Positions 1-64,000 are shown, numbered from the stretch's first letter. The stretch: 64,000 nt of DNA from Bdellovibrionota bacterium (GCA_034180415.1 JAXFOK010000005.1:65093-129092), one strand, 5' to 3'. The notes: generated by a model from the sequence alone, not told the origin. Numbers and translations are program-made.

Positions 1-1
1 T

Positions 2-3000
2 TTATATTTTGAAGCTTACATCGTAACAGATCCTGCAGATTCTCAATATGAAGTAGGTGATTTGTTAAATGAAAAAGAATATAGAGCTGCAAAAGCTGAG
101 TTTGGCTCAGATTTTGAAGCAGGAATGGGTGCTGATACTATTCAAAAAATGCTTCAAGATTTAGACTTAGAGGAACTTTCAAAAAAATTAAAGAAAGAAT
201 TTTTAGCAACAAATTCTGATGCAAAGAAAAAGAAAATCACAAAGAGATTAAAAGTTATTACAGCATTTATTAATGCTGGTAATAAGCCTGAATGGATGGT
301 ATTAAATGTTATACCTGTTATTCCACCTGATTTAAGACCTCTTGTTCCATTAGATGGTGGAAGATTTGCAACAAGTGATTTAAATGATCTTTATAGGCGT
401 GTAATTAATAGAAATAATCGTTTAAGAAGATTACTAGAGCTTAATGCACCAGATATTATTATTCATAACGAAAAGAGAATGCTTCAAGAATCAGTTGATG
501 CATTATTTGATAATGGAAGACGTGGAAGAACTGTTACAGGACCTAATAAGCGTCCACTTAAGTCATTAAGTGATATGCTTAAAGGTAAGACAGGTCGTTT
601 CCGTCAAAACTTATTAGGTAAACGTGTTGACTACTCAGGACGTTCAGTAATTGTTGTAGGACCAGAATTAAGACTTTATCAATGTGGTCTTCCAAAGAAG
701 ATGGCTCTAGAATTATTTAAGCCATTTATTTACAACAAGCTAGAAGAAAAAGGATATGTAACAACTATTAAGTCTGCAAAGAAAATGGTTGAAAAGCAAA
801 GACCAGTAGTTTGGGATATTCTTGAGGATGTAATTAAAGAGCACCCAGTATTATTAAACCGTGCTCCAACACTTCACAGACTTGGTATTCAAGCATTCGA
901 GCCAAACTTGATTGAAGGTAAGGCTATTCAACTTCACCCTCTTGTTTGTAGTGCATTTAACGCTGACTTTGATGGTGACCAAATGGCTGTGCATGTTCCA
1001 CTATCAGTAGAAGCACAAGTTGAAGCAAGAGTTCTTATGATGTCAACAAATAACATCTTAAAGCCAGCAGATGGTAAAGCAGTTATCGTTCCATCACAAG
1101 ACATGGTTCTAGGGCTTTATTATATGACAAGAGAGCGTCCATTTGCTAAAGGTGAAGGTAAGTCTTTCTTTGATATTGATGAAGTGTTATTTGCTTGGGA
1201 TGCTAAAGAGGTTGATCTTCAAGCTTCAATTCAAGTTAGAATTGAAGGAAAACTTGAAAAAACTACAGTTGGTAGAGCGTTATTATATCACTTCTTACCA
1301 AAAGTTCTTCCTTTCTCAAGTCTTAATAAAGTAATGAAGAAGAAACAAATTGGTGGACTTATTGACGAAGCATTTAGAATTTCAGGAAACAAGGCAACTG
1401 TACTTCTAGCTGACCAATTAAAGAATATTGGATATCGTTTCGCTACAATTGCTGGTATCTCTATTGGTATTAAGGATATGGTTATCCCAGAAGCTAAGAA
1501 GACAATTTTAGCAGAAGCTGATGCAAAAGTTGCCGCAGTAGATAATCAATATCAAGAAGGTCTTATAACAGCCGGTGAGAGATCAAATAAGGTAATTGAT
1601 ATTTGGTCAGAAGTTGGAGATAAGATTACTACAGAGCTAATGGATAATATTTCTAAAGAAGAGTTTGTAAATGAAAAGACTGGCGAGAAGAAGACAGGTG
1701 AAGCATTCAACTCAGTTTATATCATGGCTGACTCAGGTGCCCGTGGTTCGTCTCAACAGATAAGACAGCTTGCTGGTATGAAGGGTTTGCTTGCTAAACC
1801 AGATGGTTCAATTATTGAACAACCTATTAAAGCAAACTTAAGAGAAGGACTTGATGCTATTCAGTACTTTATTTCAACACACGGTGCTAGAAAAGGTTTG
1901 GCAGATACTGCTTTAAAGACTGCAAACTCAGGTTACTTAACACGTAAGTTAGTTGATGTTGCACAAGATTGCATCATTACTGAGCATGATTGCGGAACAA
2001 CTAATGGTGTTAAGATGTCAGCTTTAATTGAAGGTGGTGAAGAAATTGAATCACTTGCAAATAGAGTAATTGGACGTGTAACAGCAGAGGATATTATTGA
2101 CCCAGTAACAAATGAAGTATTAATTCCAAGAAATACATTGATTGATGAGGCTAAATCAAAAGTTATAGCTCATTCAGGAATTGATTCAATTATGGTTCGT
2201 TCAGTATTAACTTGTGAATCAGAACATGGATGTTGTTCACTTTGTTATGGTCGTGATTTAGCAAGAGGACACCTTGTAAATATTGGTGAAGCAGTTGGTG
2301 TTATTGCAGCTCAGTCAATCGGTGAACCAGGAACTCAGTTAACAATGCGTACGTTCCACGTCGGTGGTACTGCTAGTATTGGTAAGACTGAACAGACATC
2401 ATTAGAAGCTAAATATGATGGTATTGTTAAGCTTATTGATTCTAAGTTAGTATCAAGACAAGATGGCACATCAGTTGTAATGGATAGAAAAACAGAGCTT
2501 GTTGTTCAAGATCCTCAAGATGGTCGTGAGAGAGAAAGATACAAACTTGTTTATGGTACAAGACTTCGTGTTAAAGATGGACAAAAAGTTAAAGCAGGAA
2601 CAGTTCTTGGTGAATGGGACCCATTTAGTTTACCAATTCTTTCTGAAATTTCAGGTCGTGTTGTATGGCAAGATATCAACGAGCAGACTATGGAAGAAAG
2701 AGCTGATGAAAGAACAGGTCTTGTAGAAAGAGAAATTATTCAAGCTAAGGATAGAGCAAAAGACTTATCACCTCGTATTGTTATTCAAGGCGAGAATGGT
2801 GAAATGAAAGCTTATAACTTACCAGTAGGTATCAGAATTACAGTTGAACATAATGTTCAAATTGAAGCAGGTGACGCGATTGCTAAGAGAGAGCGTTCAA
2901 CAACTAAGACTAAAGATATTACGGGTGGTCTACCTCGTGTTGTTGAATTATTCGAGGCAAGACGTCCTAAAGATCCTGCACAAGTTACTGAAGTTGATGG

Positions 3001-3712
3001 TATTGTTGATTTTGGTGAAGATATTAGAGGTAAGAGAAGACTTATCGTAACACCTGAATATGGTGATGCTAAAGAATATTTAATTTCTAAGAACAAGCAT
3101 ATTGCTGTTCAAAAGGGTGATTTTGTAAGAGCTGGTGAAGCTTTGACAGATGGTGCTATTGACCCTCATGATATTTTAAGTATTGAAGGTGTTGGCGCGT
3201 TAGCAAATTACTTAGTAAATGAAGTACAAGAAATTTATCGTCTACAAGGTGTTAGTATCGATGATAAGCACGTTGAGGTTATCATATCTCAAATGTTAAG
3301 ACGTGTAACTGTTATTGAGCCAGGAGATAGTAATTTATTAATTGGTGAATCAGTTGAGAAATGGAATGTTATTAAGCTTAATAATGAGCTTATTTCTCAA
3401 GGAAAGAAGCCAGCAACTTATGAACCACTTCTTCTTGGTATTACAAAGGCTGCACTTTCTACTGAGTCATTTATCTCAGCTGCTTCATTCCAAGAAACAA
3501 CTAAAGTGTTAACAGATGCTGCAGTTTCTAGTAAGATTGATACGCTTCGTGGATTAAAAGAAAATGTAATTATGGGGCGTTTAATCCCAGCAGGATCTGG
3601 AGCAACTAGATATGCATTTGATGAAATAAAAGTTAAGGAAGATGAGAAAGAGAAAGAACAAGATATTTATATTGGTCAATCTTCAATCGAATCATTAGCT
3701 GGACTTTTATAA
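2..3712 (+). CDS. rpoC: DNA-directed RNA polymerase subunit beta-prime, C-terminal about 1230 aa; the 5' end lies outside the window and the frame is open from base 2
   Basis: Translation contains hallmark RpoC blocks ([16 protein letters not shown] catalytic Asp triad region, trigger loop, C-terminal clamp). The reading frame is open upstream of the first ATG ([22 protein letters not shown]...). Confidence 0.95.
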
Positions 3713-3740
3713 TAAATTTAATTTACGTATTTCAATTTAA

Positions 3741-3778: not shown

Positions 3779-3798
3779 TTATATGGAAAAAACAATTT

Positions 3799-4662: not shown

Positions 4663-4686
4663 TAAGAAAAAATCAGAGTTAATATA

Positions 4687-7456: not shown

Positions 7457-8011
7457 TTGATATCACTGATGGTTAATTTAAAAAATATAGATAATGTAAT
7501 TATTAGAAAAGCCTCAATTCAAGATGTTCCTGAGGTTTGCAAAATTCAAGTAGATGGCTGGTGTAAGACTTATAAGGGAATTATCTTGGATGATTATTTA
7601 AGTAGTTTAAAAAGTAATATTGAAGAGAAAATTCAAGAAACAATTAAATGGTTTAATGAAGATAAAATTTCTAAAAGATTTGTCGTAGCTTTAGAAGATG
7701 AAATAATAGCTTGTTTTTCTTTAATTTTTCCAAGCAAAACTCCAAACAATATTGAAGCAGAAGTGCAGCTAAGTGATATGTATGTAAAAAATGAATATAC
7801 GGGACTGGGAATAGGAACAAAGATTTTTGAATTCATTAAAGATTTTCTTCTTAGTAAAGACAAAAATACCCTTTGTGCATGGTGCTTTAAAGATAATATA
7901 GATGCTTTTAATTTTTATAAGAAAAAAGGCGGTATCGTAAAAAAGGAAGTTCTAAAAACAATTTCTGATAATGAGTACACTGTGGTTTGTTTTTACTATG
8001 AGTTTTTGTAA
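7457..8011 (+). CDS. GNAT family N-acetyltransferase
   Basis: Motif A-like block TGLGIGTKIFEFIKDF and overall 184-aa GNAT architecture. Confidence 0.5.
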   Translation: MISLMVNLKNIDNVIIRKASIQDVPEVCKIQVDGWCKTYKGIILDDYLSSLKSNIEEKIQETIKWFNEDKISKRFVVALEDEIIACFSLIFPSKTPNNIEAEVQLSDMYVKNEYTGLGIGTKIFEFIKDFLLSKDKNTLCAWCFKDNIDAFNFYKKKGGIVKKEVLKTISDNEYTVVCFYYEFL

Positions 8012-8024
8012 AATGAGCATAATT

Positions 8025-10457
8025 ATGAAAAAATTATTATATACAAAATTTATATTTGTTTTTCTGGTAACTTATTTAGTTATATTTTCTGTAGTTTTTA
8101 AAAATGACTATTTAAGTAATATTGATACCACAGAAATTTTAACTGAATGGCAAGTTAACTTTTCACAAATAAAAATATTGTACTATATGTTTCAGTCTGC
8201 GGTATATAGTATTTGCTTGTTGTCATTTATTGTCTTTTTATACAATTATAGCAGCAAAATTTTTAAATTAAAATTATTGATGGAATCTTTAGGAATAATT
8301 AGTATAACCGTAATTTTATTTGGTTATATATATGGCAATTTTTCTTGGGATATTATAAATCTTCCGTTGTTCTTTTATGGAAGTGATGATGCTTATTTTT
8401 TATCTATCGCAAAAAATATTCTAGATGGCAATAGTTTTTGGTTTATAAAAAATTTAGATGCACCATTTGGTACAAGATTGTATGATTTTCCAAATACGTT
8501 GCCTTTTTTTTGCATTTGCGTTCGTGTTTTAGGATTGTTTACAAGTAATGTAATTTTTATAACTAACTTTTATTATTTCTTAACTTTTTTATTAGCCACA
8601 CTCTCGTTTTATATAGTTTTAAGGTTATTTAATATAAATTACTTTTTTTCTATCTTAGGAAGTATTGTATTTTCATTCTCTCAATATCACTTTTATAGAA
8701 ATATTGTACATTTAAATATTTCATCGTTTTTCTCTACGCCCATTGTTTTATACGTGTGCTATTGCATTGCATTTAACAATGATTTTAATAAGAGAGATAA
8801 TCAATTTACCGAAAAGCTAAGGACAATCACAAATATTATAACAATTAGTTTATTAATTACATTTTCTCATATTTATTATATCTATTTTGGATGCGTAGTA
8901 ATTGGTTTTAGCATGATTTGGGCGTTATTTAAAAAAAGATATGTAGCAATAGTAAAATCAATATCTATTCTTTTTTGTATAATAATGTTTGTATTTTGTG
9001 ATTTATTACCATCAATAATATATGGTATTGTCAATACTAATATGATTTCTCATCTTAGACTTCCTTATGATGCGTACGTATATAGTTTGCAATTAGTACA
9101 TTTATTTATGCCTTATCTCACCGAAGGTAAGCATGTTTTTTCGAATATCACTGATGCATATATTCGTTCAGGTATGAGTCAAAGTGAAGCTATGGTTAAT
9201 TACTTAGGAATTCTATCTTTAATTGGATTTGTAATTCTAATTTTGATTTTACTCGTTCCATCATTTAATAATTATATAAGGAAATATGAAGATGAAGGTA
9301 AAAAAGGAATACTAAGTTTTTTTTCGGCAAGCAATATGCTAATACTGTTATTAGGATTACAAAGTGGCATAGGAGTTATCGTAGCACTGTTAGGTTTTAC
9401 AAAAATTCGCGCATATAATAGGGTATCAATATATATATTAATGTATTCAATATTTGCTTTAATTTATATAATGGATATTCTCTATAAGAAATATAATAAA
9501 AAATTAAAAAATTTATATGCAGCTATTATAACAATTTTACTTATATGTTTTCATATTTATGAAACACATTTAACAAATTTTGTACAAAACCAAAATTATA
9601 ATAAAATTGCAATAAGTAATGTTAAGGATTATGCTTACAAGTTAGAAAATTTATACAAAAATGGAGCAAATATTTTACAACTTCCAATAGTAAGTTATCC
9701 AGAAAATTTAACAAATAATTCTTTAACTAATTGTAATTATCAAGTTTTGCCGTACATTTATACTAGTAATATAAAATACAGTTCTGGCGCACTAAATAAT
9801 ACAAAAGAGTATTTTGCACAAAAAGTATTATTTGATATAGATGATATAGAAAATATTTTATTAAATGCGAAAGAATACGGGTTTGATGGAATTAGCGTAA
9901 ATACCGATATGTATAATAATAATTCAATTATTGATAAATTTAATAATATCTTAGGTAACCCTAAAATTATCAGCGATTTAAAAAATATATATTTATACGA
10001 TATAAGAAATTATAAATCTAATAAAAACTTTGAATTGGACAATGTTAATTTTATAGATGATGAAAGATATATTGCTGGCGGTTTTAGTATATTAGAAATA
10101 GGTAAGGATTTTAATATAAGATGGGGAACATTAGAAGGTAAAAAAAAGTCTAAAGGTATTAATTCTTATATTTATTTTCTCCCTCCCCCAAACAAGCCAT
10201 ATAAAATCTTTTTTGATGCAAATTCAGAAATTGATAATACCCTAACAGTTTACGTAAACAATAATAAAATAGATACCTTTAATATCCATAGAGGCGAAAA
10301 TATCTTTGAAACGAAATTAATTAATTTCAATAATATACTAAAACCTTGCATTCTAAAATTAGAACATTCTGCTTCATTTTCTCCAAAAGATATTGATAGC
10401 ACAAGTTTAGATGGGCGGGAGTTGACATTAGCTTATAAACAGATTCGGCTAAAATAG
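8025..10457 (+). CDS. large polytopic membrane protein, paralog A (GT-C / YfhO-like candidate), multi-TM N-terminal domain plus about 300-aa C-terminal extracytoplasmic domain
   Basis: Probable start at ATG 8025 (MKKLLYTKF...) rather than the overlapping 7971. Conserved blocks shared with the two downstream paralogs: NFSWDIINLPLFFYGSDDAYFLSIAKN..GNSFWF..NLDAPFG, FTSNVIFITNFYYFLTF, INYFFSILGSIVFSFSQYHFYRN, C-terminal NCNYQVLPYIYTSNIKYSSGALNNTKEYF...YGFDGISVNTDMY. Confidence 0.6.
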   Translation: MKKLLYTKFIFVFLVTYLVIFSVVFKNDYLSNIDTTEILTEWQVNFSQIKILYYMFQSAVYSICLLSFIVFLYNYSSKIFKLKLLMESLGIISITVILFGYIYGNFSWDIINLPLFFYGSDDAYFLSIAKNILDGNSFWFIKNLDAPFGTRLYDFPNTLPFFCICVRVLGLFTSNVIFITNFYYFLTFLLATLSFYIVLRLFNINYFFSILGSIVFSFSQYHFYRNIVHLNISSFFSTPIVLYVCYCIAFNNDFNKRDNQFTEKLRTITNIITISLLITFSHIYYIYFGCVVIGFSMIWALFKKRYVAIVKSISILFCIIMFVFCDLLPSIIYGIVNTNMISHLRLPYDAYVYSLQLVHLFMPYLTEGKHVFSNITDAYIRSGMSQSEAMVNYLGILSLIGFVILILILLVPSFNNYIRKYEDEGKKGILSFFSASNMLILLLGLQSGIGVIVALLGFTKIRAYNRVSIYILMYSIFALIYIMDILYKKYNKKLKNLYAAIITILLICFHIYETHLTNFVQNQNYNKIAISNVKDYAYKLENLYKNGANILQLPIVSYPENLTNNSLTNCNYQVLPYIYTSNIKYSSGALNNTKEYFAQKVLFDIDDIENILLNAKEYGFDGISVNTDMYNNNSIIDKFNNILGNPKIISDLKNIYLYDIRNYKSNKNFELDNVNFIDDERYIAGGFSILEIGKDFNIRWGTLEGKKKSKGINSYIYFLPPPNKPYKIFFDANSEIDNTLTVYVNNNKIDTFNIHRGENIFETKLINFNNILKPCILKLEHSASFSPKDIDSTSLDGRELTLAYKQIRLK

Positions 10458-10489
10458 GCGATGCAATCTTTGATGCCTCGCCTGTTTTA
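10458..10489 (+). terminator. hairpin plus U-tract immediately after paralog A stop
   Basis: GGCGATGCA-atctttga-TGCCTCGCC stem-loop followed by TGTTTTA. Confidence 0.4.
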
Positions 10490-10544
10490 GCAGCTAGGCG
10501 ACTGAACTACAGTCAATAAAAGTGAAGTGTTTTATTTATAAATC

Positions 10545-10880
10545 TAGTATGCAACAACCCCCCGTAGGGGGTTAATGAAGCGAAGCGGAGCCAGGATGGG
10601 GGGAGCTCGCATAAAAAATGCGACAGCATTTTTTAATGTGCGATTCAACCCATTATAGCAAATGCCCCCCCACACCACGACCCCTTTAGGGATCGACTAA
10701 CAAAATTAAATCGCAATCAATTTAGTAAACATCCCAAATAGAATATCCATTTATATTAGTATAGACAAAACCCCTGTAAAGGGGTTATTAAAGCGAAACG
10801 AGCGTTAGCGAAGTGAAGCGGCGCTAGGGCGTAGTGGCCTAAAGCACAAGCGCTAGCTTGTGCACTCACCACTACGTTAG
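10545..10880. repeat. GC-rich island of REP-like palindromic repeats (CCCC-n-TA-n-GGGG hairpins, each followed by an AGCGAAGCG-type motif) plus a nested compound stem-loop
   Basis: aaCCCCCCGTAGGGGGtt (10556-10573), aaCCCCTGTAAAGGGGtt (10769-10787) and gaCCCCTTTAGGGatc (10679-10694). Each of the first two is followed by ttaatgAAGCGAAGCGgagc / ttattaAAGCGAAACGAGCG. Nested hairpin GTAGTGG-cctaaa-GCACAAGC-gcta-GCTTGTGC-actca-CCACTAC (10831-10875). Composition is visibly GC-richer than the flanks. Confidence 0.5.
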
Positions 10881-10974
10881 AGCTACATATTGTGCATGCT
10901 ACTTGGTTGTCATACAATTATATTATATACTAATTTAAAACTAATTTTAATTAATTCAAGGAATATATGGATTT

Positions 10975-13752
10975 ATGAAGGGTAATATCAAATTTTTGGG
11001 AATTTTTTTTGTCGTTTATGTTTTTATTTTAAGTTTGATATTCAACAATAACTCATTATCTTACCTTAATACTACTAAAATTATAAAAACTTTAAATGTA
11101 ACTAATTTTAATAAATATAAGGTTAATAATAACAATAAAAACTTTGATTTAGAAATTCCCCTTAACCCCTATAATAACGGAACCTCTTATACTGTTTCTC
11201 TTAAATTAAATAACACTTTAAATAAACTATTCAAAACTCATATAAGCTTATATGATGTAAATACAAATAAATTAGCCTATAAGAAACTTTTTAATATAAA
11301 AAAAGGAAGAAGCGTAATTCTTGCTAAAATTTCATACGAAACAAAAGATACAAATTATAAACTAAAAATTGAATCTTCAAATGAAAATATTATAAAAAAT
11401 ATAAAAATTTCTCAAAATAACGTTACACCAAAAATTGTAAATGCTTCCTGCTATGTTTTTCAAGCTTTAATATATAGCATAATTTTATTTGCTTTTATTT
11501 TATTTACCTATTTTCATAGAAAACAAATATTTAATTTAAAAAATATAAGAGATTTTTTTCTAGTAAGCTTAATTACTCTAATACTACTAGGATACATCTA
11601 TAATAACTTTAACTGGGATTTTGTTAATGTACCTATTTATTTTCTAGGCTTAAATGATGCCCACTGCTTAGCTGTACTAAAAAACGCTATGCAAGGAAAT
11701 AGCTATTGGCATATTCCAAACTTAGGAGCACCTTTTGGAACAAATGTTTATTATTATCCAATCCTAATGGGGTTTTATTACTATTTTGGAAGGCTTTTGG
11801 GAATTTTTACGAATAATGTCATTTTTGTAAATAATTTATATTTAATATTAACTTTTATACTTTCTTCTTTTGGGGTTTTTATAATTGCAAGAATTTTTAA
11901 AATTAATTATTTTCTTGCCATTCTCGGAGGCTTGCTTTTTTCAATTTCTCAGAATCATTTAATAAGAAACGGTCTACACGTCCAAATTTCATCATATTTT
12001 GTAAACATAATCGTTTTTTATTACTGTTTTAAAATTGTTAAAGATGAAAAATTCAATAATAAATTAATCTTACTAAATGATAAATTAAAATTATACATAG
12101 GTTTAATCTTAGGAGCTTTCTTACTTGGGTCAGTAGAAATTTATTATGCTTATTTTGGATTGATATTTTTAACTCTAAGTGTGTTTATATCATTATTTAA
12201 TAAAAGATATACCGCAAGCATTAGAGGATTATTATTTATTTTTTTAATATTTATATGTTTAGCAAATAGCTTACTTCCTGCTATCATAAACGCAATTTTA
12301 AATGGAGCTACTAAATCTGCTGTAAGAAGTCCATCTGAAGCTTTTTATTATGGATTAATGCTAGTTCATTTGTTTAAACCGTATAATGTTACTAGCTCTC
12401 ATATTTTTTCTGCTATTTCTAACTCTTATGATAAAGTAATGCCATTTAAAGGAGAAGTGCTTTATAATTATCTTGGAATATTAGGAGGAATAGGATTTTT
12501 ATTATTACTATTATTTTTACTTGTTGAACCCTTTAAAAATATAATACAAAAATATGAAAAGCAAGAAAATAGAGGAACATTAAGTCTTATTTCGATACTA
12601 AATATTTTTGCACTTTTAGTCGGATTTCAAAGTGGTATAGGGATAATAATATCTTTAATGGGGCTTACGCAATTTAGAGCATATAATCGTATTAGTGTTT
12701 ATATCTTACTGTTTTCAGTATTTACACTAATTTATTTACTCGATATCTTCTTTAAGAGAGCCTTTAAAAATAAAACAAACGTATATGTAGCTATCTTTTC
12801 ATTGTTTTTATTATATATTCATATTGTAGATATTAATCCTTCAAATTTAGTTCAAGATTTTAATACAAATAAAGAAAAAGTTAATAATGTAAAAGAGTAT
12901 GCTAAAAACTTAGATGATTACTATAAAGATGGCGCAAAGATTTTACAATTACCTGTTTTATTATTTGTTGATAATTATGTAAGAGATGATTTTACAAACT
13001 GTAATTATCAAGTTTGGCCATATCTTTTTACAAAAAATATTAGGTATAGTTTTGGCGCATTTAAAAATACAAAAGAGTTTTTTATGCAAAATGCACTATT
13101 TGATGATAATAATATTGAAAATGTTGTGTCAAATGCTAAGAATTATGGTTTTAATGGAATAAGCGTAAATACAGATATATATGATAATAGTGATGTCGTA
13201 GCTAGTTTAAAAAACCTTTTAGGTGAACCTAAAATTGTAAGCAAGCTTGGAAACATATTATTGTTTGATTTAAAGGATTATAAATCAAATAAGGAAGTGC
13301 ATTTTAAAAATATTAATTTAATAGAAAACGATAGTAATATTATTAGTGGATTTAGTGGATTAGAAAGAGGAAAAGATTTTTATATAAGATGGGCGGTTTT
13401 AGATGAAAATTTTAACTTAAAGAAAAATAATGGCATAAATTCTTATATTTATTATATTCCTCCAAAAGGTAAGTCATATAAGATTGTTTTAAATGTTCAC
13501 TCTGAAATTGATAATACATTAAAGGTATACGTAAATAATAATAAAGTAGGGGATTTTAAAATTGAAAAAGGGGATAGTATTTTTGAGACCAAAACAATAT
13601 TAAAAGGGAGCGGGGCTAAAAAATTAGAACCTAGTGTGTTAATGTTAGAACATAGTAAGTCTTTTAGACCAAGCAGTTTTGATAATAAATCAATAGATAA
13701 AAGAATATTAACATTAGCATATAAGGAAATCTTGGTTAAAATTTTAGAGTAA
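10975..13752 (+). CDS. large polytopic membrane protein, paralog B (925 aa), with an extra N-terminal extracytoplasmic module
   Basis: Shares all conserved blocks with paralog A (NFNWDFVNVPIYFLGLNDAHCLAVLKN..GNSYWH..NLGAPFG; NCNYQVWPYLFTKNIRYSFGAFKNTKEFF; YGFNGISVNTDIYD). Also carries an N-terminal about 150-aa region (LDLEIPLNPYNNGTSYTVSLKLNN...) absent from A. SD sequence AAGGA 11 nt upstream. Confidence 0.6.
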   Translation: MKGNIKFLGIFFVVYVFILSLIFNNNSLSYLNTTKIIKTLNVTNFNKYKVNNNNKNFDLEIPLNPYNNGTSYTVSLKLNNTLNKLFKTHISLYDVNTNKLAYKKLFNIKKGRSVILAKISYETKDTNYKLKIESSNENIIKNIKISQNNVTPKIVNASCYVFQALIYSIILFAFILFTYFHRKQIFNLKNIRDFFLVSLITLILLGYIYNNFNWDFVNVPIYFLGLNDAHCLAVLKNAMQGNSYWHIPNLGAPFGTNVYYYPILMGFYYYFGRLLGIFTNNVIFVNNLYLILTFILSSFGVFIIARIFKINYFLAILGGLLFSISQNHLIRNGLHVQISSYFVNIIVFYYCFKIVKDEKFNNKLILLNDKLKLYIGLILGAFLLGSVEIYYAYFGLIFLTLSVFISLFNKRYTASIRGLLFIFLIFICLANSLLPAIINAILNGATKSAVRSPSEAFYYGLMLVHLFKPYNVTSSHIFSAISNSYDKVMPFKGEVLYNYLGILGGIGFLLLLLFLLVEPFKNIIQKYEKQENRGTLSLISILNIFALLVGFQSGIGIIISLMGLTQFRAYNRISVYILLFSVFTLIYLLDIFFKRAFKNKTNVYVAIFSLFLLYIHIVDINPSNLVQDFNTNKEKVNNVKEYAKNLDDYYKDGAKILQLPVLLFVDNYVRDDFTNCNYQVWPYLFTKNIRYSFGAFKNTKEFFMQNALFDDNNIENVVSNAKNYGFNGISVNTDIYDNSDVVASLKNLLGEPKIVSKLGNILLFDLKDYKSNKEVHFKNINLIENDSNIISGFSGLERGKDFYIRWAVLDENFNLKKNNGINSYIYYIPPKGKSYKIVLNVHSEIDNTLKVYVNNNKVGDFKIEKGDSIFETKTILKGSGAKKLEPSVLMLEHSKSFRPSSFDNKSIDKRILTLAYKEILVKILE

Positions 13753-13866
13753 CTTTACAAATGTTTTAGATTTTCAATTTTTAATAAATTACTTTATAAT
13801 ATTAATTATTGATAACTATTCAAAAATATTTAATTTTTTCTATATTATATTTTTTAGATTTTATTT

Positions 13867-16659: not shown

Positions 16660-16687
16660 AGTTCTTGTATAATTGAGGATGATGTAT

Positions 16688-18815: not shown

Positions 18816-19055
18816 AATTTCTCCTTAGAAAACGAAAATGAATTTTTACGACAACTAATATAATTATTATTTAATTTAATAATACTAGCAATGAGGAATT
18901 CTATTTAAGATTTTCTTAGCTTTTAATAAATAATAATTTATTTTTATCAATTTTAGGATCTAATAGGATTTCTACACACAAAAAATTTGCAATTTCATTA
19001 AAGAAGATGTTTTAAAAAAAAATGCTTAAAAGAGACATTAAATTTTAAATTAAAA

Positions 19056-19505: not shown

Positions 19506-19604
19506 GATTATTTCCCTTATTATTTGATATATTGCATTTTGTAATATATATTAAGAATATTAATTTTTAAGTTTGCTAGCAATAATAATTTTTATTTTTT
19601 TGCC

Positions 19605-26129: not shown

Positions 26130-26132
26130 AAA

Positions 26133-47430: not shown

Positions 47431-48807
47431 ATGGCCAATATGGATGAAGTATATAATGTTGTCAAGGGAAGTGGCTCAGAGTTAAAGAAAAGATTCCTTT
47501 TTACTTTAATGATGCTTGCTGTTTACAGATTAGGCGTTTTTGTTTCAACTCCAGGGGTAAATGTTTCATTGTTAAGATCAAGACTTGGATTTGGTGAAAA
47601 TGGCGGTGGAGATGGTACAGTCTTTGGCCTTATTAATATGTTTTCAGGTGGTTCATTTGAAAACTTTTCTATTTTTACTTTAGGTATAATGCCATATATC
47701 TCAGTTTCAATTATCATTCAATTTATGACTCCATTATTTCCTTCACTAAATGAATTAAAGAAGCAAGGGGAGGCTGGAAGAAGGATAATTACAAGATGGA
47801 CAAGACAAGGGACAGTAGTTCTTGCTCTTATACAGAGCTTTATGATTGCAATCGGGCTTCAAAGAAGTGGGCTTGTATTAAATCCTGGACCTAGTTTTGT
47901 TTTCCTAACAATGGTTACGCTTACAGCGGGTACTGCGTTTATAATGTGGCTTGGAGAGCAAATTACTGAAAAAGGTGTAGGTAATGGTATAAGTATTATA
48001 ATTTTTGCTGGTATTGTAGCGAGAATGCCTCAGGTATTTGGTCAAACAGTTGAATTAGCAAAAGGAGCAGTTAATCCTCTGATTGTTTGTTTAGCAATTT
48101 TATTTTGTATTGCAACATTCTTCTTAATCGTATTTGTCGAAAGGTCTGCAAGAAAGATTCCTGTTCAATATCCAAGGCGTATGGTAAATAGTACGATGGC
48201 TACGCAAAAGCAAGTTCAGTATATGCCATTAAAGCTTAATATGTCAGGTGTTATTCCTCCAATTTTTGCGTCATCAATTTTGGTTATTCCTGCAACTATT
48301 GCTGGTTTCACAACTAATGAAACGATAAGAAATTTTTTATTAAATTACTTAAATCCATCAAATTTCTGGTATAATATAGTATTTGCATTATTAATTTTCG
48401 TTTTCTGTTATTATGCAACTGCAATGATGTTTAATCCAGAAGAGATTGCAGAGAATATGCAAAAAAATGGTGGATTTATTCCTACTGTAAGACCTGGAAA
48501 AGAAACCGCTGATTTCTTTTTTGATGTACTAAATAAGTTAACATTTTGGGGTGGAATTTATATAGTTATTATTTGTATATTGCCAAGGCTTGTTTATTCA
48601 AAATTTGGTTTAGATTCATTTTCATATGTATTTGGTGGTACATCAATACTAATTGTTGTTGGTGTTATATTAGATACGATGAATCAAATTCAATCAATCT
48701 TGGTTTCTAGAAACTATGAAGATTTTATGACAAAAGCTTCGAGATCTAAAGCTGGTATCAGTGGAGCTTTTGGTGGACATAAAGGCGGAAAAATATTCCA
48801 TAGATAA
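47431..48807 (+). CDS. secY: preprotein translocase subunit SecY
   Basis: 10-TM protein with SecY blocks (GIMPYISVSIIIQFMT, GEAGRRIITRWTR, FFFDVLNKLTFWGGIYIVIICILP). Confidence 0.95.
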   Translation: MANMDEVYNVVKGSGSELKKRFLFTLMMLAVYRLGVFVSTPGVNVSLLRSRLGFGENGGGDGTVFGLINMFSGGSFENFSIFTLGIMPYISVSIIIQFMTPLFPSLNELKKQGEAGRRIITRWTRQGTVVLALIQSFMIAIGLQRSGLVLNPGPSFVFLTMVTLTAGTAFIMWLGEQITEKGVGNGISIIIFAGIVARMPQVFGQTVELAKGAVNPLIVCLAILFCIATFFLIVFVERSARKIPVQYPRRMVNSTMATQKQVQYMPLKLNMSGVIPPIFASSILVIPATIAGFTTNETIRNFLLNYLNPSNFWYNIVFALLIFVFCYYATAMMFNPEEIAENMQKNGGFIPTVRPGKETADFFFDVLNKLTFWGGIYIVIICILPRLVYSKFGLDSFSYVFGGTSILIVVGVILDTMNQIQSILVSRNYEDFMTKASRSKAGISGAFGGHKGGKIFHR

Positions 48808-48876
48808 TTTCTAGATTTGTTTTAAACTATAAGTAGTTTCTAGAAATTTTTATAAAAAAGAATTTAACAAAGATGA

Positions 48877-50553
48877 ATGTCTTATGTTAATTCTTTTTTT
48901 ATAATTGCTCGTTTAAGGTGGCATGTGAATAGAAAAATTGTAAGATTTTCATATATTATTTTTAGCTTAATAGTAATTTTTGCTCCAGTTGTCCTAGAAA
49001 ATTTACAATCTATATTTAATTTTAATTTTGACACTAAACTTATAGGTTTTACAATAAAAAATAATAAGCCTCAAAGATTATCTTATAATGATTTTAAATC
49101 TGGTAAATTTCAAACAAACTATTCTTCTTGGTATAATGATAACTTACCGCTTAGAGGTCATTTAGTAAAATGCTATAATACGATACGTTTTAAGCTTTTT
49201 CATCTTGCAAATTTATGTAGGTTAATAGGTAATGATAATTTTGTTTACGAACCTGCTTATCTAAATGCTCATTTTGTTTTAAGTGAAAAATATGATTTTT
49301 CAATAAAGAAGAATAAAATGGGTATGCAAGAGTTTGTTAATGATTTAGTAACTCTTCAAGAAAAATTAGATAATATGGGTAAAACATTATATATATTTAT
49401 TCCACCAAGCAAAGTACATTTTTATCCTCAAAGTGTACCGAATAAATTTTATAATATGAAAGATGAGCATGCCATAAGTCCCTTAACCATGTTTAAAAAT
49501 TTAGTGGATAAAACAAACCTTAATGTTAGAATTGCCACATATGATATGCAAGATAATTATAAGTATCCTTCCTTTTACTCTACTGGAATTCATTGGTCAA
49601 GGACTTATGAACAAATTGCTACTGATAAAATGTTAGAAGATATTAATAATATTTCAGGTAGACATTATAGGAGGTTAGTATTTGGTAAAGTTAAAAAAAA
49701 CAAAAAGGGCTTTTGGCGTGATAAAGATGTTTATAATGCATTAAATATTTATGATAACAAAAAAAATGAAAAATATTATGAATTTAAATTAAAAAGGGAA
49801 AAACCACAAGAATATGACAAGATGAGGTTTTTAATAAATGGTGATAGCTTTTCAGAAGGTTTAATTCATGATATTTTACAAATTTATCCTGATGAAAAAT
49901 TTATAGTGAGAGTAAATAGAGATGTTTCTGTAACTGATGGTTATAACAATCGAATATTGCTAAATCATGATTTTAATAATGCTGATTTTGGAAAGTATTT
50001 GAATGAATCTGATGTCGTAATTATAGAAATGATAGAACCTGAAATTTTATATTATTCACATGGATTTGTTAAACATTTATTACGTATTATAGATAATGAT
50101 AGTGAGGTTCAGCATGGTCGCAATAAAGATAATAAAAATACGAAATTAATATTTGATGATAATATTGACTATGAAAATAGTATTGGGTTGTATAATAAAT
50201 ATAGAAGAGGTATTTGGACTAATAAATATGCTTCAATTAATATGACTAATAAATATATAGGGAAGAAAGGTTTTAAGATTGACTTTAAAATTCCTCATCA
50301 AATTATTGAAAAACATAAAACGCAGAATGTTGTTATGTATATTAATCAAGAAAAAGTATACGAAAAAGAATTTAGTAAATCTGGTTTTTACACTTTTCAA
50401 ATGTCGCCAAAAGATATAAATATTACAAAAGATGATACGTATGAAGTCGTACTTGAACTAAGTCATATTTTTATTCCGAAAAACTTTAATAAAAAAAGTA
50501 ATGATAGCAGAAAACTTGGTGTTCTTATTAAATATATTGGTGAGGTGAGGTAA
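48877..50553 (+). CDS. SGNH/GDSL hydrolase-family protein with N-terminal membrane anchor; likely partner of the downstream MBOAT (AlgJ/AlgX/DltD/PatB-like O-acyltransferase)
   Basis: N-terminal TM (FSYIIFSLIVIFAPVVL); GDS block RFLINGDSFSEGLIHD; 3-nt spacing to the MBOAT gene. Confidence 0.45.
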   Translation: MSYVNSFFIIARLRWHVNRKIVRFSYIIFSLIVIFAPVVLENLQSIFNFNFDTKLIGFTIKNNKPQRLSYNDFKSGKFQTNYSSWYNDNLPLRGHLVKCYNTIRFKLFHLANLCRLIGNDNFVYEPAYLNAHFVLSEKYDFSIKKNKMGMQEFVNDLVTLQEKLDNMGKTLYIFIPPSKVHFYPQSVPNKFYNMKDEHAISPLTMFKNLVDKTNLNVRIATYDMQDNYKYPSFYSTGIHWSRTYEQIATDKMLEDINNISGRHYRRLVFGKVKKNKKGFWRDKDVYNALNIYDNKKNEKYYEFKLKREKPQEYDKMRFLINGDSFSEGLIHDILQIYPDEKFIVRVNRDVSVTDGYNNRILLNHDFNNADFGKYLNESDVVIIEMIEPEILYYSHGFVKHLLRIIDNDSEVQHGRNKDNKNTKLIFDDNIDYENSIGLYNKYRRGIWTNKYASINMTNKYIGKKGFKIDFKIPHQIIEKHKTQNVVMYINQEKVYEKEFSKSGFYTFQMSPKDINITKDDTYEVVLELSHIFIPKNFNKKSNDSRKLGVLIKYIGEVR

Positions 50554-50555
50554 AA

Positions 50556-51938
50556 ATGGTTTTTTCATCTACAATATTTTTATTTATATTTTTGCCTGTA
50601 TGCTTATTTTTTAATTTTATTGTTGATAAAAAATTTAAAAATTTAGTACTACTAATTTTTTCATTAATATTTTATGCCTGGGGAGAGCCTAAAAATGTTA
50701 TATTAATGCTTTTTTCGATTTTATTTAATTATTTTTTTGGAATTCTTGTTGAAAAAGACAATAAGTATATTAAAAAATCATCTTTAATTCTTGCGTGTGT
50801 TTATAATTTAGGTGTTCTTTTTGTTTTTAAATATTTAAATTTTTCAATAGATACCTTTAATGAACTTTTTAACCAGAATATTGAAATTGCAAAAATTGCG
50901 CTTCCAATTGGTATTTCATTTTATACATTTCAAAATTTATCTTATGTAATAGATGTTTATAGAGGAAATGTAAAAGCGCAAAGAAAATTTTTGGATCTTG
51001 CACTTTATGTTTCGCTTTTTCCTCAATTAATTGCCGGCCCCATAGTTAGATATATTAATATTCAAAAGCAGATTATAAATAGGGTGTCATCTATTAAAAG
51101 AGTAAGGGAGGGACTCGTTAGATTTCAAGTTGGATTTATAAAGAAAGTTTTAATTGCTGATGTTTTGTCTGGTCTAGTTGATATTGCATTTAGAGGAGAA
51201 TATCCATCAATATACACAAATTGGATTGGTGCCATAGCGTATGCACTTCAAATATATTTTGATTTTAGTGGTTATTCAGATATGGCAATAGGAATTGGTA
51301 GAATTTTAGGATTCAAATTCTTAGAAAACTTTAATTATCCTTATATTTCAAGGTCAATACAGGAGTTTTGGAGAAGGTGGCATATTTCACTTAGTTCATG
51401 GTTTAAGGATTATGTGTATATCCCTCTTGGTGGAAGTAGAGAAGGAAATTTTAAAACATATAGAAATATATTTATAGTTTTTCTTTTATGTGGTACGTGG
51501 CATGGAGCTAGCTTTAATTTTATCTTTTGGGGCGTTTATTATGCGTTATTTTTGATGTTTGAACGCGCTATAGGAAAGAGCCTCCTTGAGAAGCTCCCCT
51601 TAATTTTCAGACATTTTTACGCAATATTAGTTGTGCTTGTTGGTTGGGTGTTTTTTAGAGCAGACACAATGATTGATGCAGTAAAATATTTAAAAGGTAT
51701 GGTTACATTTCAAGGAAAGGATTTAGCTAATTTTAATTTTATCATGAATGGGGAATATTATCTTTTTTTAATAGTTGGAATTTTATGTTCAATGCCTCAT
51801 ACAAAAATTAAAAACTTTTTTAAGAAAACAATCTTTAGAATATGTATATCTGACTTTTTAACACTTTTAATCTTTTTGGTAGCAATTAGCTATATGGTTG
51901 GAAAAGGACATAGCCCGTTTTTATATTTTAGATTTTAA
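50556..51938 (+). CDS. MBOAT-family membrane O-acyltransferase (AlgI/DltB/PatA-like)
   Basis: MBOAT signature FWRRWHISLSSWFKDYVYIPLGGSREG with the invariant His, and the multi-TM architecture FYAWGEPKNVILM at the N-terminus. Confidence 0.8.
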   Translation: MVFSSTIFLFIFLPVCLFFNFIVDKKFKNLVLLIFSLIFYAWGEPKNVILMLFSILFNYFFGILVEKDNKYIKKSSLILACVYNLGVLFVFKYLNFSIDTFNELFNQNIEIAKIALPIGISFYTFQNLSYVIDVYRGNVKAQRKFLDLALYVSLFPQLIAGPIVRYINIQKQIINRVSSIKRVREGLVRFQVGFIKKVLIADVLSGLVDIAFRGEYPSIYTNWIGAIAYALQIYFDFSGYSDMAIGIGRILGFKFLENFNYPYISRSIQEFWRRWHISLSSWFKDYVYIPLGGSREGNFKTYRNIFIVFLLCGTWHGASFNFIFWGVYYALFLMFERAIGKSLLEKLPLIFRHFYAILVVLVGWVFFRADTMIDAVKYLKGMVTFQGKDLANFNFIMNGEYYLFLIVGILCSMPHTKIKNFFKKTIFRICISDFLTLLIFLVAISYMVGKGHSPFLYFRF

Positions 51939-56189: not shown

Positions 56190-58037
56190 TTAGTTGCTAT
56201 ATTTTTTAAATTGTTCTTTAAATTCTTGATATTGTTCTTGTATGAATTTATATAAATCAGTATATTTTGGAACTTTTTTCCCCTCGTATTTGCAAGAAAT
56301 ATTTTGAAAACATCTAACATAGTTTTCTTTATCAGTATTTTTGCATTCATTAATTATTTCTTTTATCGTTTCAAATTCTTTTTCACTTGGAATACCTTGT
56401 CTATTAAACATTCCACTTATAGAACTAAATAACTTAAATATTTCTTTGTTATCTTTAATATGAAGTTCATTTTCTGAATACTCTATAAATTTATTTAAAA
56501 AATCTTTAGCTTTATTTAAATCTTTAGCACCTTTTTTTGCTAACATACTAGTAAATGAGCTAAAGATATTTAAATAATTATCACTGTCTATGCTTTGACA
56601 TTCTTTAATTATTCCTTTAATTTCTTCAAATTCATCACTACTTGGAATACCTTGATCAGCAAACATTCCACTTATAGAACTAAATAACTTAAATATTTCT
56701 TTGTTATCTTTAATATGAAGTTTATTTTCTGAATACTCTATAAATTTATTTAAAAAATCTTTAGCTTTATTTAAATCTTTAGCACCTTTTCCACCTAACA
56801 TGCTAGTAAATGATCTAAAAATATTTAAGTAATTATCACTATCTATGCTTTGACATTCTTTAATTATTCCTTTAATTTCTTCAAATTCATCACTACTTGG
56901 AATACCTTGAGCAGCAAACATTCCACTTATAGAGCTAAATAACTTAAATGTTTCTTTGTTGTCTTTAATATGAAGTTCATTTTCTGAATACTCTATAAAT
57001 TTATTTAAAAAATCTTTAGCTTTATTTAAATCTTTAGCACCTTTTCCACTTAACATGCTAGTAAATGAGCTAAAAATATTTAAGTAATTATCACTATCTA
57101 ATTCTTTACAAGCTAGGATTATTTCTTTTATAGTTTTAAATTCACTTTGAGTAGGGATACCTTCTCCATGATACATTCCACTTATTGATTTTAATATTTC
57201 AACTGATAACTCTTTATTCCCTAATTCTTTTTCTGAAAAATTAGATAACTTTTGTAAAAATTCATTAAATTTTGTCATATCTGGTATTTCGCAAGAGGCA
57301 CTATACATCGATGATAAATTCTCTCTATATTTAGAACTTGCATATACTGATAAATCTTCAAAATCTGTCATTAATAAATTTTGAAAAAATCTTTTCATTT
57401 TATGATACTGAGTCATATTTGAAATAGCAGTAATAACTCGTATATCATGATTTTTTTCATTATCTATAAGTTCTTTAATTCTTAATGTAAGTTCAATTTC
57501 TAGAACTCTTAAAAATTTTTTATTATTTTCATTAATTTCAAATTCATTTTCTATTAATCCATCTTTTGTATATATTGGTTTAATATCATAGACTTTATAC
57601 ATTTCACAAATTTGTGCTTTTAAATTTTGATATCCTATTTTTATTTCACCTATTGAATTTTCCATATCCTCAAAAAAGTTATCAACAAATTTTTTTGCAC
57701 ATAGAAATAATTTTTCAAGAGACTCAATTTTGTCTTCTTTAGCTTCTTTATGCTTAACTTTTGTATTACCTACATGATAATTTTTATAAAAATATAGAAT
57801 TCGGTCAGTAGGGAAGCTTTTAATTTCTCCAAATGTTGATATTTTTTCATCTTGTCTTAATCTTTCACATCTTTTTTTAATATCTTCTATTTGTTCTTCC
57901 GTTAGCCTTCTCGTTTCTTTATCTACCTCTAAACTAGATGCTACATATTTTAAATATAATTTAGGTAATATCCCCGTGCACTTTGCATCATGCTGATAAA
58001 GTTCATTACTATTACTTATTAAAATTTGCTCTGCCAT
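56190..58037 (-). CDS. hypothetical protein built from tandem about 85-aa repeats
   Basis: The 615-aa ORF has a central region with 3 nearly identical repeat units plus two diverged units (LNIFSSFTSMLSGKGAKDLNKAKDFLNKFIEYSENELHIKDNKE.FKLFSSISGMFA.QGIPSSDEFEEIKGIIKECQSIDSDNY). Confidence 0.5.
   Translation of the reverse strand: MAEQILISNSNELYQHDAKCTGILPKLYLKYVASSLEVDKETRRLTEEQIEDIKKRCERLRQDEKISTFGEIKSFPTDRILYFYKNYHVGNTKVKHKEAKEDKIESLEKLFLCAKKFVDNFFEDMENSIGEIKIGYQNLKAQICEMYKVYDIKPIYTKDGLIENEFEINENNKKFLRVLEIELTLRIKELIDNEKNHDIRVITAISNMTQYHKMKRFFQNLLMTDFEDLSVYASSKYRENLSSMYSASCEIPDMTKFNEFLQKLSNFSEKELGNKELSVEILKSISGMYHGEGIPTQSEFKTIKEIILACKELDSDNYLNIFSSFTSMLSGKGAKDLNKAKDFLNKFIEYSENELHIKDNKETFKLFSSISGMFAAQGIPSSDEFEEIKGIIKECQSIDSDNYLNIFRSFTSMLGGKGAKDLNKAKDFLNKFIEYSENKLHIKDNKEIFKLFSSISGMFADQGIPSSDEFEEIKGIIKECQSIDSDNYLNIFSSFTSMLAKKGAKDLNKAKDFLNKFIEYSENELHIKDNKEIFKLFSSISGMFNRQGIPSEKEFETIKEIINECKNTDKENYVRCFQNISCKYEGKKVPKYTDLYKFIQEQYQEFKEQFKKYSN
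56386..57150. repeat. three near-identical direct tandem repeats of about 255 bp (in-frame coding repeats), flanked by diverged copies
   Basis: The landmark ttccacttatagaRctaaataacttaaat recurs at 56411, 56667 and 56921 (periods 256 and 254 bp), with near-identical intervening sequence. Confidence 0.8.
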
Positions 58038-59809: not shown

Positions 59810-60193
59810 TTACCAAAGATGCTTTCCAGTTTCTAGTAGGCTTTCAATATCTTTATAAGCGTTTTCTAGTGCTTCTTGATGATAGACAAAGTAGCTATCG
59901 TAAACTTCTTGTGTTATGCCTTTTTTATCCCAGTATCTTAGTACATCAGAAGTTTTCATATTTTTATCATAAGCATAACGTTCAAGAAGTAGGGTGAAAA
60001 ATTTTAACTCTTTACTCATCTTAAAAACCTTTTCAGAATTTTCGATTTTTGATTTTCTTTTTGCCCAAGAAACGGCTTGATTAAAATCAGATGTAGTGTA
60101 AAAGCCAGGTCCAAAATCTAAATTTTTCCTTGAACTTGATGCTAAAGGTTCTTTAACTACTATATTACTTCCATGATATAAAATTTTTATCAT
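59810..60193 (-). CDS. DUF3990-like small protein (YHGS...DFGPGFYTT...WA motif), function unknown and possibly toxin-like
   Basis: 127-aa ORF; the N-terminal motif LYHGSN-x12-DFGPGFYTTSDFNQAVSWA resembles the DUF3990 family. Confidence 0.35.
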   Translation of the reverse strand: MIKILYHGSNIVVKEPLASSSRKNLDFGPGFYTTSDFNQAVSWAKRKSKIENSEKVFKMSKELKFFTLLLERYAYDKNMKTSDVLRYWDKKGITQEVYDSYFVYHQEALENAYKDIESLLETGKHLW

Positions 60194-60299: not shown

Positions 60300-60545
60300 G
60301 GAACTATTAAAATACCATCTTTATTTTTGTATGCGTACGTTCCAACGCCTGAAAAAAAATCATTTTAAATGATGGCTCTTTCATTTTTTCAGTATCTAAA
60401 ATTTTAGATAATTTTTGAAGTGTTTCAATGCCTTCGTTAATTCGTGTATCCCCACCAAGTTTTATTTCTATTAAACCATATTGCCCGTTTTGTAAATGAA
60501 TAATTGCATCACATTCAAGGTCGTTTCATTAAAATATTGTTAACA
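60300..60545 (-). pseudogene. possible remnant of an ATPase/DUF4143-like gene (fragment only)
   Basis: Minus-strand translation IHLQNGQYGLIEIKLGGDTRINEGIETLQKLSKILDTEKMKEPSFKMIF is flanked by stops in all frames; there is no intact ORF. Confidence 0.2.
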
Positions 60546-62344: not shown

Positions 62345-63588
62345 TTTTTATTGTTCTTAGATAATTCTTTTACTTTTAAAGCATATTCTAGATTTATTGT
62401 ATCAAATTTATTATTTATTAGATTAATTGTCGCAGTATCTCCTTTTAGATTTTTAATATTTTCAGCAAGAACTGAAACTGTATGTGAGCGAAGAGAAACA
62501 CTTACTAATTTTCGTTGTGAAATGGGTAATACTATCACTAAGTAAATAATCATTATAAAGAGTATCTTATTGTTTATTATCAAACTATTTTTTACAAATG
62601 TGATTATACTGCAGATTAAAAATGGGAGAGAAATGTACACATATAAGTATGAAGAATTAGGTACTGGCATAGTGGGAATGACAAATATGATACCTGTAAT
62701 TAAAATTAAGAGGGCATGCATATTTTTAAATGAACAGTCATTCTTCAAGTCTTTAGTATTAAAAACAATTAGGAAGAATATAGGAATTAATGAAATAAAA
62801 TAAACATTAAAAATATAGTATGAGATTTTTTTTAAAAAGTATAAAAGAGAATAGTTGTATGTATATAAGTCTGGTGCTGTCGATATTTCCCATGCATTTG
62901 TATTTTTACGCAAATACAAATACAAGATAGTTAAAATGATATGAAAACTTAAACTTAAAATAATTTTTATTTTATTGATTTTACAGGTTATTAAAATAAT
63001 TGGGGTTGCAAATAATGTCATTATTGCAGTTTCTTTGCTAAGTAATGATAAAAATATAAGTATATTAAATAATATTAATGAAAGAACAGTATTTTTTATA
63101 TAAAGAAGTGCTACAAGTGCTAGGAAGAAAAAAAATACCCATAAAGTTTCTGTTCTTCCGACTATCATAAGTAATGTATTTTGAGCAATTTTAAAATTTA
63201 GAGCCCATATAAAAATTATGATACTAGATAAAATTTTTGAACCTGTTATCTTATTAAAAATATAATACCCAAGCATTAAATTTGTAAGAAATAATAAAAA
63301 ATTAAATAGTCCATAAGGGTACGGGTTAAATCCAAATAATTTTATGCAAATATAAAATGAGATATGGTTGATTGGTCTAAAGAAGCCATCCATTCCAATA
63401 TCTAATAAGCCTAGCATCTTGTTAGAATTGTCAACTAATCTAAAGAAATCATCACCAAAGAAATATTTTCCAGTAAATGGAAGATATGCTGTAAAACAAA
63501 AATATACAGCTAAAAGTAATATTATTTGGTTGTAAGAAAGATCTTTAATTTTGTTAATGTATCTGGTAAATATTTTGAATTGTATCAC
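62341..63588 (-). CDS. polytopic membrane protein (GT-C, ArnT/PMT-like candidate)
   Basis: The 415-aa multi-TM ORF has an N-terminal GDDFFRLVDN loop-like acidic motif after TM1, as in GT-C lipid-linked sugar transferases. Confidence 0.45.
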   Translation of the reverse strand: MIQFKIFTRYINKIKDLSYNQIILLLAVYFCFTAYLPFTGKYFFGDDFFRLVDNSNKMLGLLDIGMDGFFRPINHISFYICIKLFGFNPYPYGLFNFLLFLTNLMLGYYIFNKITGSKILSSIIIFIWALNFKIAQNTLLMIVGRTETLWVFFFFLALVALLYIKNTVLSLILFNILIFLSLLSKETAIMTLFATPIILITCKINKIKIILSLSFHIILTILYLYLRKNTNAWEISTAPDLYTYNYSLLYFLKKISYYIFNVYFISLIPIFFLIVFNTKDLKNDCSFKNMHALLILITGIIFVIPTMPVPNSSYLYVYISLPFLICSIITFVKNSLIINNKILFIMIIYLVIVLPISQRKLVSVSLRSHTVSVLAENIKNLKGDTATINLINNKFDTINLEYALKVKELSKNNKK

Positions 63589-63704
63589 TTTTATAATGAC
63601 TTTTTTAGAAAAACCTAATACTCTTTAGAAATGCCTAAGGCACTCACTCTATGTTTTGTGTCTTAGGCATTTAGATTTACTAATCAATATATATTGTTAG
63701 TTGA

Positions 63705-64000
63705 TTATTTAGTTTCATAACCTGTAACTTCTAATTTGTCTTGTCCATAGATATAAGGGATATAGAAAAACAAATGAGATAAGTTTACATCAACTAACAT
63801 ATTTGCATCTTTCCACGTTGTCGCCTCTTTATACGCATCAGAAAAAAGAGGATTAAAATCAGTTGGAACAATACAAATAATATGTCGTCTTTTTACTCCA
63901 CTTACATAATTTCCTTTGTCCCGTGTGTTTACAGAGAAATCACTAGGATTAATTTGTCCATTAGAGAGTAATGTTAAATGAGACTTGCTTGTACAAGATG
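63705..64000 (-). CDS. hypothetical protein, C-terminal part only (the N-terminus lies beyond the window end)
   Basis: Open minus-strand frame to the window edge, ending ...DKLEVTGYETK*. Confidence 0.35.
   Translation of the reverse strand, partial: SCTSKSHLTLLSNGQINPSDFSVNTRDKGNYVSGVKRRHIICIVPTDFNPLFSDAYKEATTWKDANMLVDVNLSHLFFYIPYIYGQDKLEVTGYETK

Follow-up and report, generated by a model that had tools for sequence, protein, structure and literature searches.

The DNA analysed here, called the window throughout, is a stretch of 64 000 nucleotides (64 kb) from a Bdellovibrionota bacterium (GCA_034180415.1, JAXFOK010000005.1:65093-129092). It is a chromosomal segment of an uncultured Bdellovibrionota species that runs from rpoC via dnaK/dnaJ and the S10-spc ribosomal operon to secY, and it carries broken remains of bioW, bioF, trpS, an acyltransferase-3 gene and an ATPase gene, as well as intact genes for a UvrA-derived protein and a short RecO and two GC-rich islands (table 1). 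Five to six remnants were counted among about 65 genes (8-9%), and they lie where short variable sites, four in all, separate conserved operons. An earlier, sequence-only reading had taken these features as the mark of genome-wide reductive evolution in a recently host-restricted bacterium, brought about by relaxed selection, a small effective population size and AT drift; the remnants are weighed below against that reading, against long-term streamlining, against assembly artefact and as a product of ordinary gene flux.

Table 1. Features of the window with their positions, counted from its first nucleotide. aa, amino acids; ORF, open reading frame; E, expectation value.
Feature	Position	Strand	Description
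GC-rich hairpin island 1	10541-10921	none	between two tandem paralogous membrane-protein genes
acyltransferase-3 pseudogene	16673-17813	+	three ORFs in different frames; Acyl_transf_3 positions 6-301/326, E 1e-14 (joined)
short RecO	20401-21003	-	intact, 200 aa; TIGR00613 58 bits versus 48.7 cut-off; RecO_N E 5.8e-7
GC-rich non-coding island 2	25101-25409	none	GC 0.395; upstream of bioW remnant
bioW pseudogene	25410-26126	+	6-carboxyhexanoate-CoA ligase; Pfam BioW (PF03744) 1-234/239, E 1.8e-68
bioF remnant	26130-26586	+	about the N-terminal third; Aminotran_1_2 positions 2-96/361
UvrA-derived protein	27043-28944	-	intact, 633 aa; PDB UvrA match, phmmer E 6e-20
trpS remnant	31617-32051	-	N-terminal HIGH-motif piece and 64-aa C-terminal piece
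DUF3990/DUF3791 ORF	59810-60193	-	127 aa; DUF3990 2-55/152, then DUF3791 2-58/60 (Pfam)
ATPase C-terminal fragment	60310-60525	-	72 aa; matches last ~60 residues of ~425-aa AAA_14+DUF4143 proteins

Lesions and their rate of change

The local gene order was common to four related lineages (loci L091, L092, L006 and L093), among which L091 represented the closest other species (DnaK 96% and RecO 88% identical) and L093 covered just two genes, the UvrA-like one and the small one beside it. Within-species comparisons were made with L094, a conspecific strain with 98.5% identity over 18.9 kb. An 11-kb part of the window was 99.93% identical to contig JAQYCR010000021.1 (GCA_028724725.1), and the nearest species representatives in the genome collection were Bdellovibrionota and Bdellovibrionales metagenome-assembled genomes (MAGs) with a 73% identical GrpE.

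The lesions listed in the sequence-only reading were found in the genes to which it had assigned them. The three nonsense codons of bioW were a TAG at 25575 and TAAs at 25662 and 25890, which left a full-length domain and no uninterrupted frame. In L094 the first two stops read CAG and CAA, the third stop was present in both strains, and L094 carried a frameshift of its own; the two window-specific stops arose by CAG/CAA to TAG/TAA changes. The truncated bioF had a frameshift near 26365-26393 and had lost the remainder of the gene, so that it ended 98 bp before the neighbouring gene. An intact trpS measures roughly 1 kb; in the window its middle was deleted, about 435 nt were left in broken frames with frameshifts and stops, the N-terminal piece matched tRNA-synt_1b at positions 7-54/292 (E 3e-7), and no match to a KMSKS-type motif was found within the remnant. 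The two frameshifts of the acyltransferase-3 gene lay near 16867-16897 and 17160-17200, and the second of these breaks was read through in L094, the lesion thus being polymorphic between strains. The ATPase fragment, also as described before, had 419 homologs, and in the full-length ones the match fell at residues ~346-404. It adjoined the DUF3990/DUF3791 ORF, which was present in GCA_028724725.1 and is probably a fusion generated by deletion.

An artefact of sequencing, of assembly or of chimeric joining within a MAG would be a barely credible source of these stops and frameshifts. The source is of MAG type and, in the same strain, there are contigs that break off close to a GC-rich island, but the bioW/bioF lesions recurred in GCA_028724725.1 and the acyltransferase lesions in Logan assembly SRR21357823 (both 99.9-100% identical to the window), and for this reason the lesions are not assembly errors; moreover, the different strain L094 shared one bioW stop and added lesions of its own, and the lesions included stop codons due to base substitution and losses of hundreds of codons, which go beyond homopolymer indels.

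Intact genes differed from their L094 counterparts by 0.2-1.1% and had no internal indels, whereas bioW, bioF, trpS and island 2 differed by about 1.9-4.2% with one to four indel events each (bioF 4.1%, three events; trpS 1.8%, four events; island 2 3.9%). Over 15 intact genes, the proportions of synonymous (pS) and non-synonymous (pN) differences calculated by the Nei-Gojobori procedure were 0.022 and 0.0022, respectively, giving a pN/pS of 0.10 from 86 substitutions (62 synonymous and 24 non-synonymous). The remnants thus change at or above the synonymous rate and are true pseudogenes. The inactivating mutations differed between the window and L094 (bioW stops, the L094 frameshift and the acyltransferase read-through), and decay is ongoing, caught here inside a single species. 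For the neighbours, the pN/pS of 0.10 speaks against the relaxed selection and small effective population size of the sequence-only reading, which were not borne out.

Coding density, which had been expected to be low under genome-wide reduction, was not low in the window: intact genes occupied 84%, or about 85% with three small ribosomal-protein genes added, and about 90% when pseudogenes were included. A scan of the window's non-ribosomal ORFs with a length of 80 aa or more gave no transposase or insertion sequence (IS) domain, a further result that does not fit recent reduction. Nor did the segment look genetically isolated. A tract of about 1 kb (18600-19600), spanning the 5' end of the Band7 gene and the whole NfeD gene up to the start of yggU, had 97-100% DNA identity to the divergent lineage L006 (about 7600-8570 of that locus) between flanks of 65-85% identity, and NfeD was identical at 149/149 aa; such a tract amid such flanks indicates recent DNA exchange between divergent lineages. 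As to AT drift, the window is extremely AT-rich, with 29% GC and, in 56 native genes, a GC content at third codon positions (GC3) of ~0.18, and these values count in favour of reduction. Its recency found no support, since the GC of relatives is 22-31% and the AT bias is therefore presumably old.

Origin of the remnants

All three sister lineages that cover the interval from dnaJ to the 101-aa gene (hyp101), namely L091, L092 and L006, had neither bioW nor bioF there. L092 had a gap of 143 bp at this place and L091 one of 439 bp, and L006 had an unrelated 191-aa ORF at the site. Island 2 belongs to the same lineage-specific insert as bioW; no Rfam match to it was obtained at E up to 1, and it had no counterpart in L006. 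The trpS pieces were absent from the gap between the 496-aa gene (hyp496) and rpsL in L091, the sole sister lineage covering that site. GC3 was 0.285 for bioW, 0.375 for bioF and 0.346 for trpS, against the value given above for native genes.

Long-term streamlining would have the remnants be ancestral genes of the clade, already fully deleted in the sister lineages and here in the midst of loss. This is quite improbable, although the whole clade is AT-rich with a compact gene order, L006 retains the C-terminal 40 aa of a paralog that it has lost, and the search for a close donor of BioW or TrpRS was negative. Streamlining would call for independent complete deletions of bioW/bioF at one site in L091, L092 and L006, and it does not account for a remnant GC3 above native, a level that a native gene would not reach through AT-biased decay. 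The bioW frame, further, can still be recognised from end to end (E 1e-68), and its inactivation is therefore recent. The ancestral gene loss implied by the sequence-only reading does not fit well either: bioW/bioF were absent in three sisters and trpS in one, with a GC3 of 0.29-0.38 versus 0.18.

Acquisition followed by non-maintenance is favoured because a native gene that decays in an AT-biased genome would not gain in GC3. On synteny and GC3, bioW/bioF would be a lineage-specific acquisition that was then not maintained, which fits better than ancestral loss, and the trpS piece is probably likewise GC-richer incoming DNA that was not maintained. The position of the pseudogenes at variable sites, and their absence in relatives, also tells against genome-wide reduction.

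Two further observations concern the surroundings of trpS. The hyp496-to-rpsL interval is a variable site, filled in L091 (4115-5162) by other GC-rich repetitive DNA that included a short tandem repeat translating as RTRVASGF. Upstream of rpsL, a non-coding stretch of 454 bp (32111-32564) had zero substitutions relative to L094 and was 86% identical to L091, a conservation equal to that of the flanking protein genes; it gave no Rfam match and, on its conservation, may be a leader or promoter region.

The UvrA-derived protein, short RecO and the surrounding segment

The UvrA homolog had been read as having dead ATPase motifs, and the alignment with canonical UvrA bore this out, with Walker A, signature and Walker B all lost or replaced. 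Walker A I had a 7-residue deletion and Walker A II lay within a deleted stretch, both LSGGE signatures were replaced (LTSNI at site II), and Walker B was changed to IIQNPLSF at site I and LYIIKNAF at site II. The insertion domain, which bears Zn2, was deleted and the last ~60 residues were gone. Scores of 61.5-62.6 bits fell below the UvrA equivalog cut-offs of 729.8 and 1147 (TIGR00630 / NF001503). The cysteines of Zn-fingers 1 and 3 were kept, C112, C115, C239, C242, C489, C492, C508 and C511 being invariant in 6/6 aligned sequences.

These losses had been counted as decay, a claim that the comparison with relatives did not sustain. The family comprised seven members of 608-643 aa and one 403-aa partial, the relatives being 39-49% identical to the window protein; length was maintained in at least five divergent lineages and the replacement Walker B motif (LYIIKNAF) was conserved. 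The gene lay between surA and the 101-aa gene, a small membrane-protein gene, in L091, L092, L094 and L006, and L093 showed the small-gene side only. Within-species pN/pS was 0.15. The chance of an open frame this long at this composition was ~1e-29, and the other two frames contained 70 and 117 stops. Many positions in the family appear nearly free while a core is fixed, and between the window and L091 (7855-9765) the protein was 47% identical, neighbouring proteins being 72-96% identical. The protein evolves very fast yet under constraint, and it is not decaying.

An AlphaFold model, used for family- and domain-level matches only, was weak (predicted local distance difference test, pLDDT, 60.5) and matched UvrA structures at E 5e-15. 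One region of ~124 residues in this weak model resembled the isolated UvrB/TRCF-binding domain (4dfc_B and 3fpn_A, target template modelling scores 0.53-0.57). P0010, the best canonical UvrA match, was considered as a uvrA of the same lineage and rejected, its gene neighbourhood being judged that of an unrelated bacterium.

With class I UvrA and the class II paralogs (Deinococcus UvrA2 and Ecm16), the protein shares sequence and fold homology and the cysteines of Zn-fingers 1 and 3, and part of its model may resemble the UvrB/TRCF-binding domain, a class I feature; unlike UvrA and its paralogs, it has no intact ATP-binding motifs, no insertion domain and no C-terminal ~60 residues. No description of ATPase-dead UvrA paralogs was found in the searchable literature, and Ecm16 is reported to need its ATPase activity (PMC9328131). 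It is tentatively suggested that the protein could be a previously undescribed, clade-specific non-catalytic UvrA derivative, which would have lost both ATP sites and the insertion domain and been kept by selection with its zinc fingers and a UvrB-binding-like domain, and which might serve as a scaffold for ATP-independent DNA binding or damage sensing, or might have replaced canonical UvrA in a lineage reorganising nucleotide excision repair. A conserved UvrA derivative without ATPase sites would widen the known roles of the UvrA scaffold.

The RecO homolog, too, was as described, having no CxxC pair in its sequence and thus no C-terminal Cys4 zinc finger. Compared with the RecO model TIGR00613, it passed the cut-off over model positions 2-166/239 and shared the N-terminal OB-fold (oligonucleotide/oligosaccharide-binding) domain, but was shorter. 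Some RecO proteins, for example that of E. coli, also have no four cysteines, and absence of the zinc finger is therefore not in itself a mark of decay. Orthologs of 198-200 aa were found in L091, L006 and L094, identity to L006, L007 and L091 was 44-88%, and within-species pN/pS was 0.06. The short RecO and the UvrA derivative with its dead ATPase are both conserved, derived features of the whole clade held by purifying selection, and their conservation across the clade argues against a reading of them as recent degeneration. The Asn/Lys/Ile-rich ORFs had been taken for orphans; those tested were not, as they had orthologs in related MAGs with 46-90% identity.

In gene order, the window starts in the 3' part of rpoC, which is followed by a glycosylation cluster (a DUF4214 protein, two GT1 glycosyltransferases, a GNAT protein and three tandem ~900-aa membrane-protein paralogs), then by the broken acyltransferase-3 gene, Band7/NfeD, yggU, a zinc-ribbon gene, recO and grpE-dnaK-dnaJ, then by the bioW/bioF remnants, hyp101, the UvrA-like gene, surA, hyp496 and the trpS remnant, and finally by a complete rpsL-rpsG-fusA-tuf-S10-spc operon through secY and ~15 kb of accessory genes. 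The standard bacterial code gave good reading frames; no tRNA gene was found in the window, and no Rfam match was obtained at gathering thresholds across its whole length. About 29 kb of unrelated genes separated rpoC from rpsL (3712-32565). Genes adk/map/infA/rpsM usually lie downstream of secY and had been expected here; 3' of secY (48807-51938) an AlgX-like gene was followed by a MBOAT gene. The three tandem multi-pass membrane-protein paralogs (7971-16659, ~830-930 aa) lay 3' of the glycosyltransferases and gave a weak DUF6311 match. In L006 (783-3798) there was one such paralog and the 40-aa C-terminal remnant of another, so that copy number varies among lineages. A 615-aa protein with no family match, encoded on the minus strand at 56190-58037, contained three to four tandem copies of a 255-nt (85-aa) unit, 71-88% identical to one another.

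The two islands had been described as GC-rich palindromic repeats. Both were GC-rich and perfect hairpins were found in island 1; they were not copies of one another, and neither was related to any fetched locus. Island 1 had a GC of up to 0.52, several perfect hairpins and an internal direct repeat of ~60 nt, folded more stably than shuffled sequence (z = -5.0 and -6.1) and gave no Rfam match at E up to 1. No evidence for a mobile repeat was obtained: a 20-nt motif of both repeat units had 12 matches in JGI metagenome contigs, all of them unrelated chance matches, at least two of which read as encoding the peptide GVIEAKR. Two contigs of the same strain from independent short-read assemblies, L110 (SRR21357823) and L111 (SRR21357804), both ended at or within ~50 bp of island 1 (window 10457-11018); the genome may hold further copies of the island, or its assembly may be difficult.

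Gene flux, reduction and comparison with known systems

Ordinary gene flux (gain, inactivation and deletion) under AT-biased mutation, and not a genome-wide collapse of selection, is the explanation considered moderately probable. GC-richer DNA, to which at least the bioW-bioF block and, probably, the piece of trpS belong, would have entered the lineage, not been maintained, and would now be eroding through GC-to-AT nonsense mutations, frameshifts and deletions. Acyltransferase-3 inactivation differs between strains, and the ATPase and DUF3990/DUF3791 remnants look like what is left of a small islet of accessory genes. Strong purifying selection acts on the surrounding genes, in a lineage that is AT-rich and compact already.

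Several points weigh against this explanation. The share of remnants, 8-9%, is above that expected of a typical free-living genome and similar to that of some recently host-adapted pathogens, and the loss of biotin synthesis, the UvrA homolog without ATPase sites and the truncated RecO all fit a reductive trend. The selection estimates depend on the 86 substitutions given above, and the data cover 64 kb and a few flanking loci, with about 2-4.5 kb to the right of the window, from which flux is extrapolated to the rest of the genome only conditionally. Foreign origin is drawn from synteny and GC3 with no donor named: the best intact homologs of BioW were just 58-63% identical, and the best matches of the TrpRS pieces were ~60-63% identical over a third of the query; parallel complete deletion in the sister lineages is a possible alternative.

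Genome-wide reduction through recent host restriction is, all the same, unlikely. Its real substance lies in the five to six real, neutrally changing pseudogenes in 64 kb and their high local density, in the inactivated biotin-synthesis genes, the UvrA and RecO homologs without ATP-binding motifs and zinc finger, respectively, and the L006 deletion remnant of a paralogous membrane-protein gene. Against it stand the strong selection on intact genes, the intact coding density and the recent DNA exchange described above. It would draw support also from the habitat. Close copies of the window were present in ENA assemblies named MUNK18-1_SAMEA..., a label that is presumably that of a pig/poultry faecal metagenome survey, which literature searches did not confirm; livestock faeces, and with them a gut habitat, are accordingly suggested by the label alone. 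Nothing specific was found in the literature on the accessions or on gut Bdellovibrionota; the phylum is known mainly for predators. If complete genomes showed widespread decay, the organism would be an animal-associated, reduced lineage of Bdellovibrionota. On the gene-flux explanation, the window is a small-scale example that separates genome-wide degeneration from neutral decay confined to a few genes that are accessory or acquired, with pseudogenes that drift at the synonymous rate, in a within-species comparison, beside neighbours under a pN/pS of 0.10.

With bacteria whose genomes are degrading after a recent host restriction, such as Sodalis glossinidius, Mycobacterium leprae and Shigella, the window has in common an AT bias and genes for biosynthesis and accessory functions that are broken by nonsense codons, frameshifts and deletions; it differs from them in a coding fraction of ~85-90%, in that no IS was seen in the window, in its pN/pS and in ongoing recombination with another lineage. 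Failed horizontal transfers and ordinary pseudogene turnover are a familiar process in bacterial genomes. From failed transfers the window differs in that no donor lineage is named and in a local remnant density at the high end, and it resembles them in variable sites, atypical composition, absence in close relatives, a neutral rate and strain-specific lesions. Pseudogene turnover itself is well known, and the window is a new example of it in an uncharacterised lineage.

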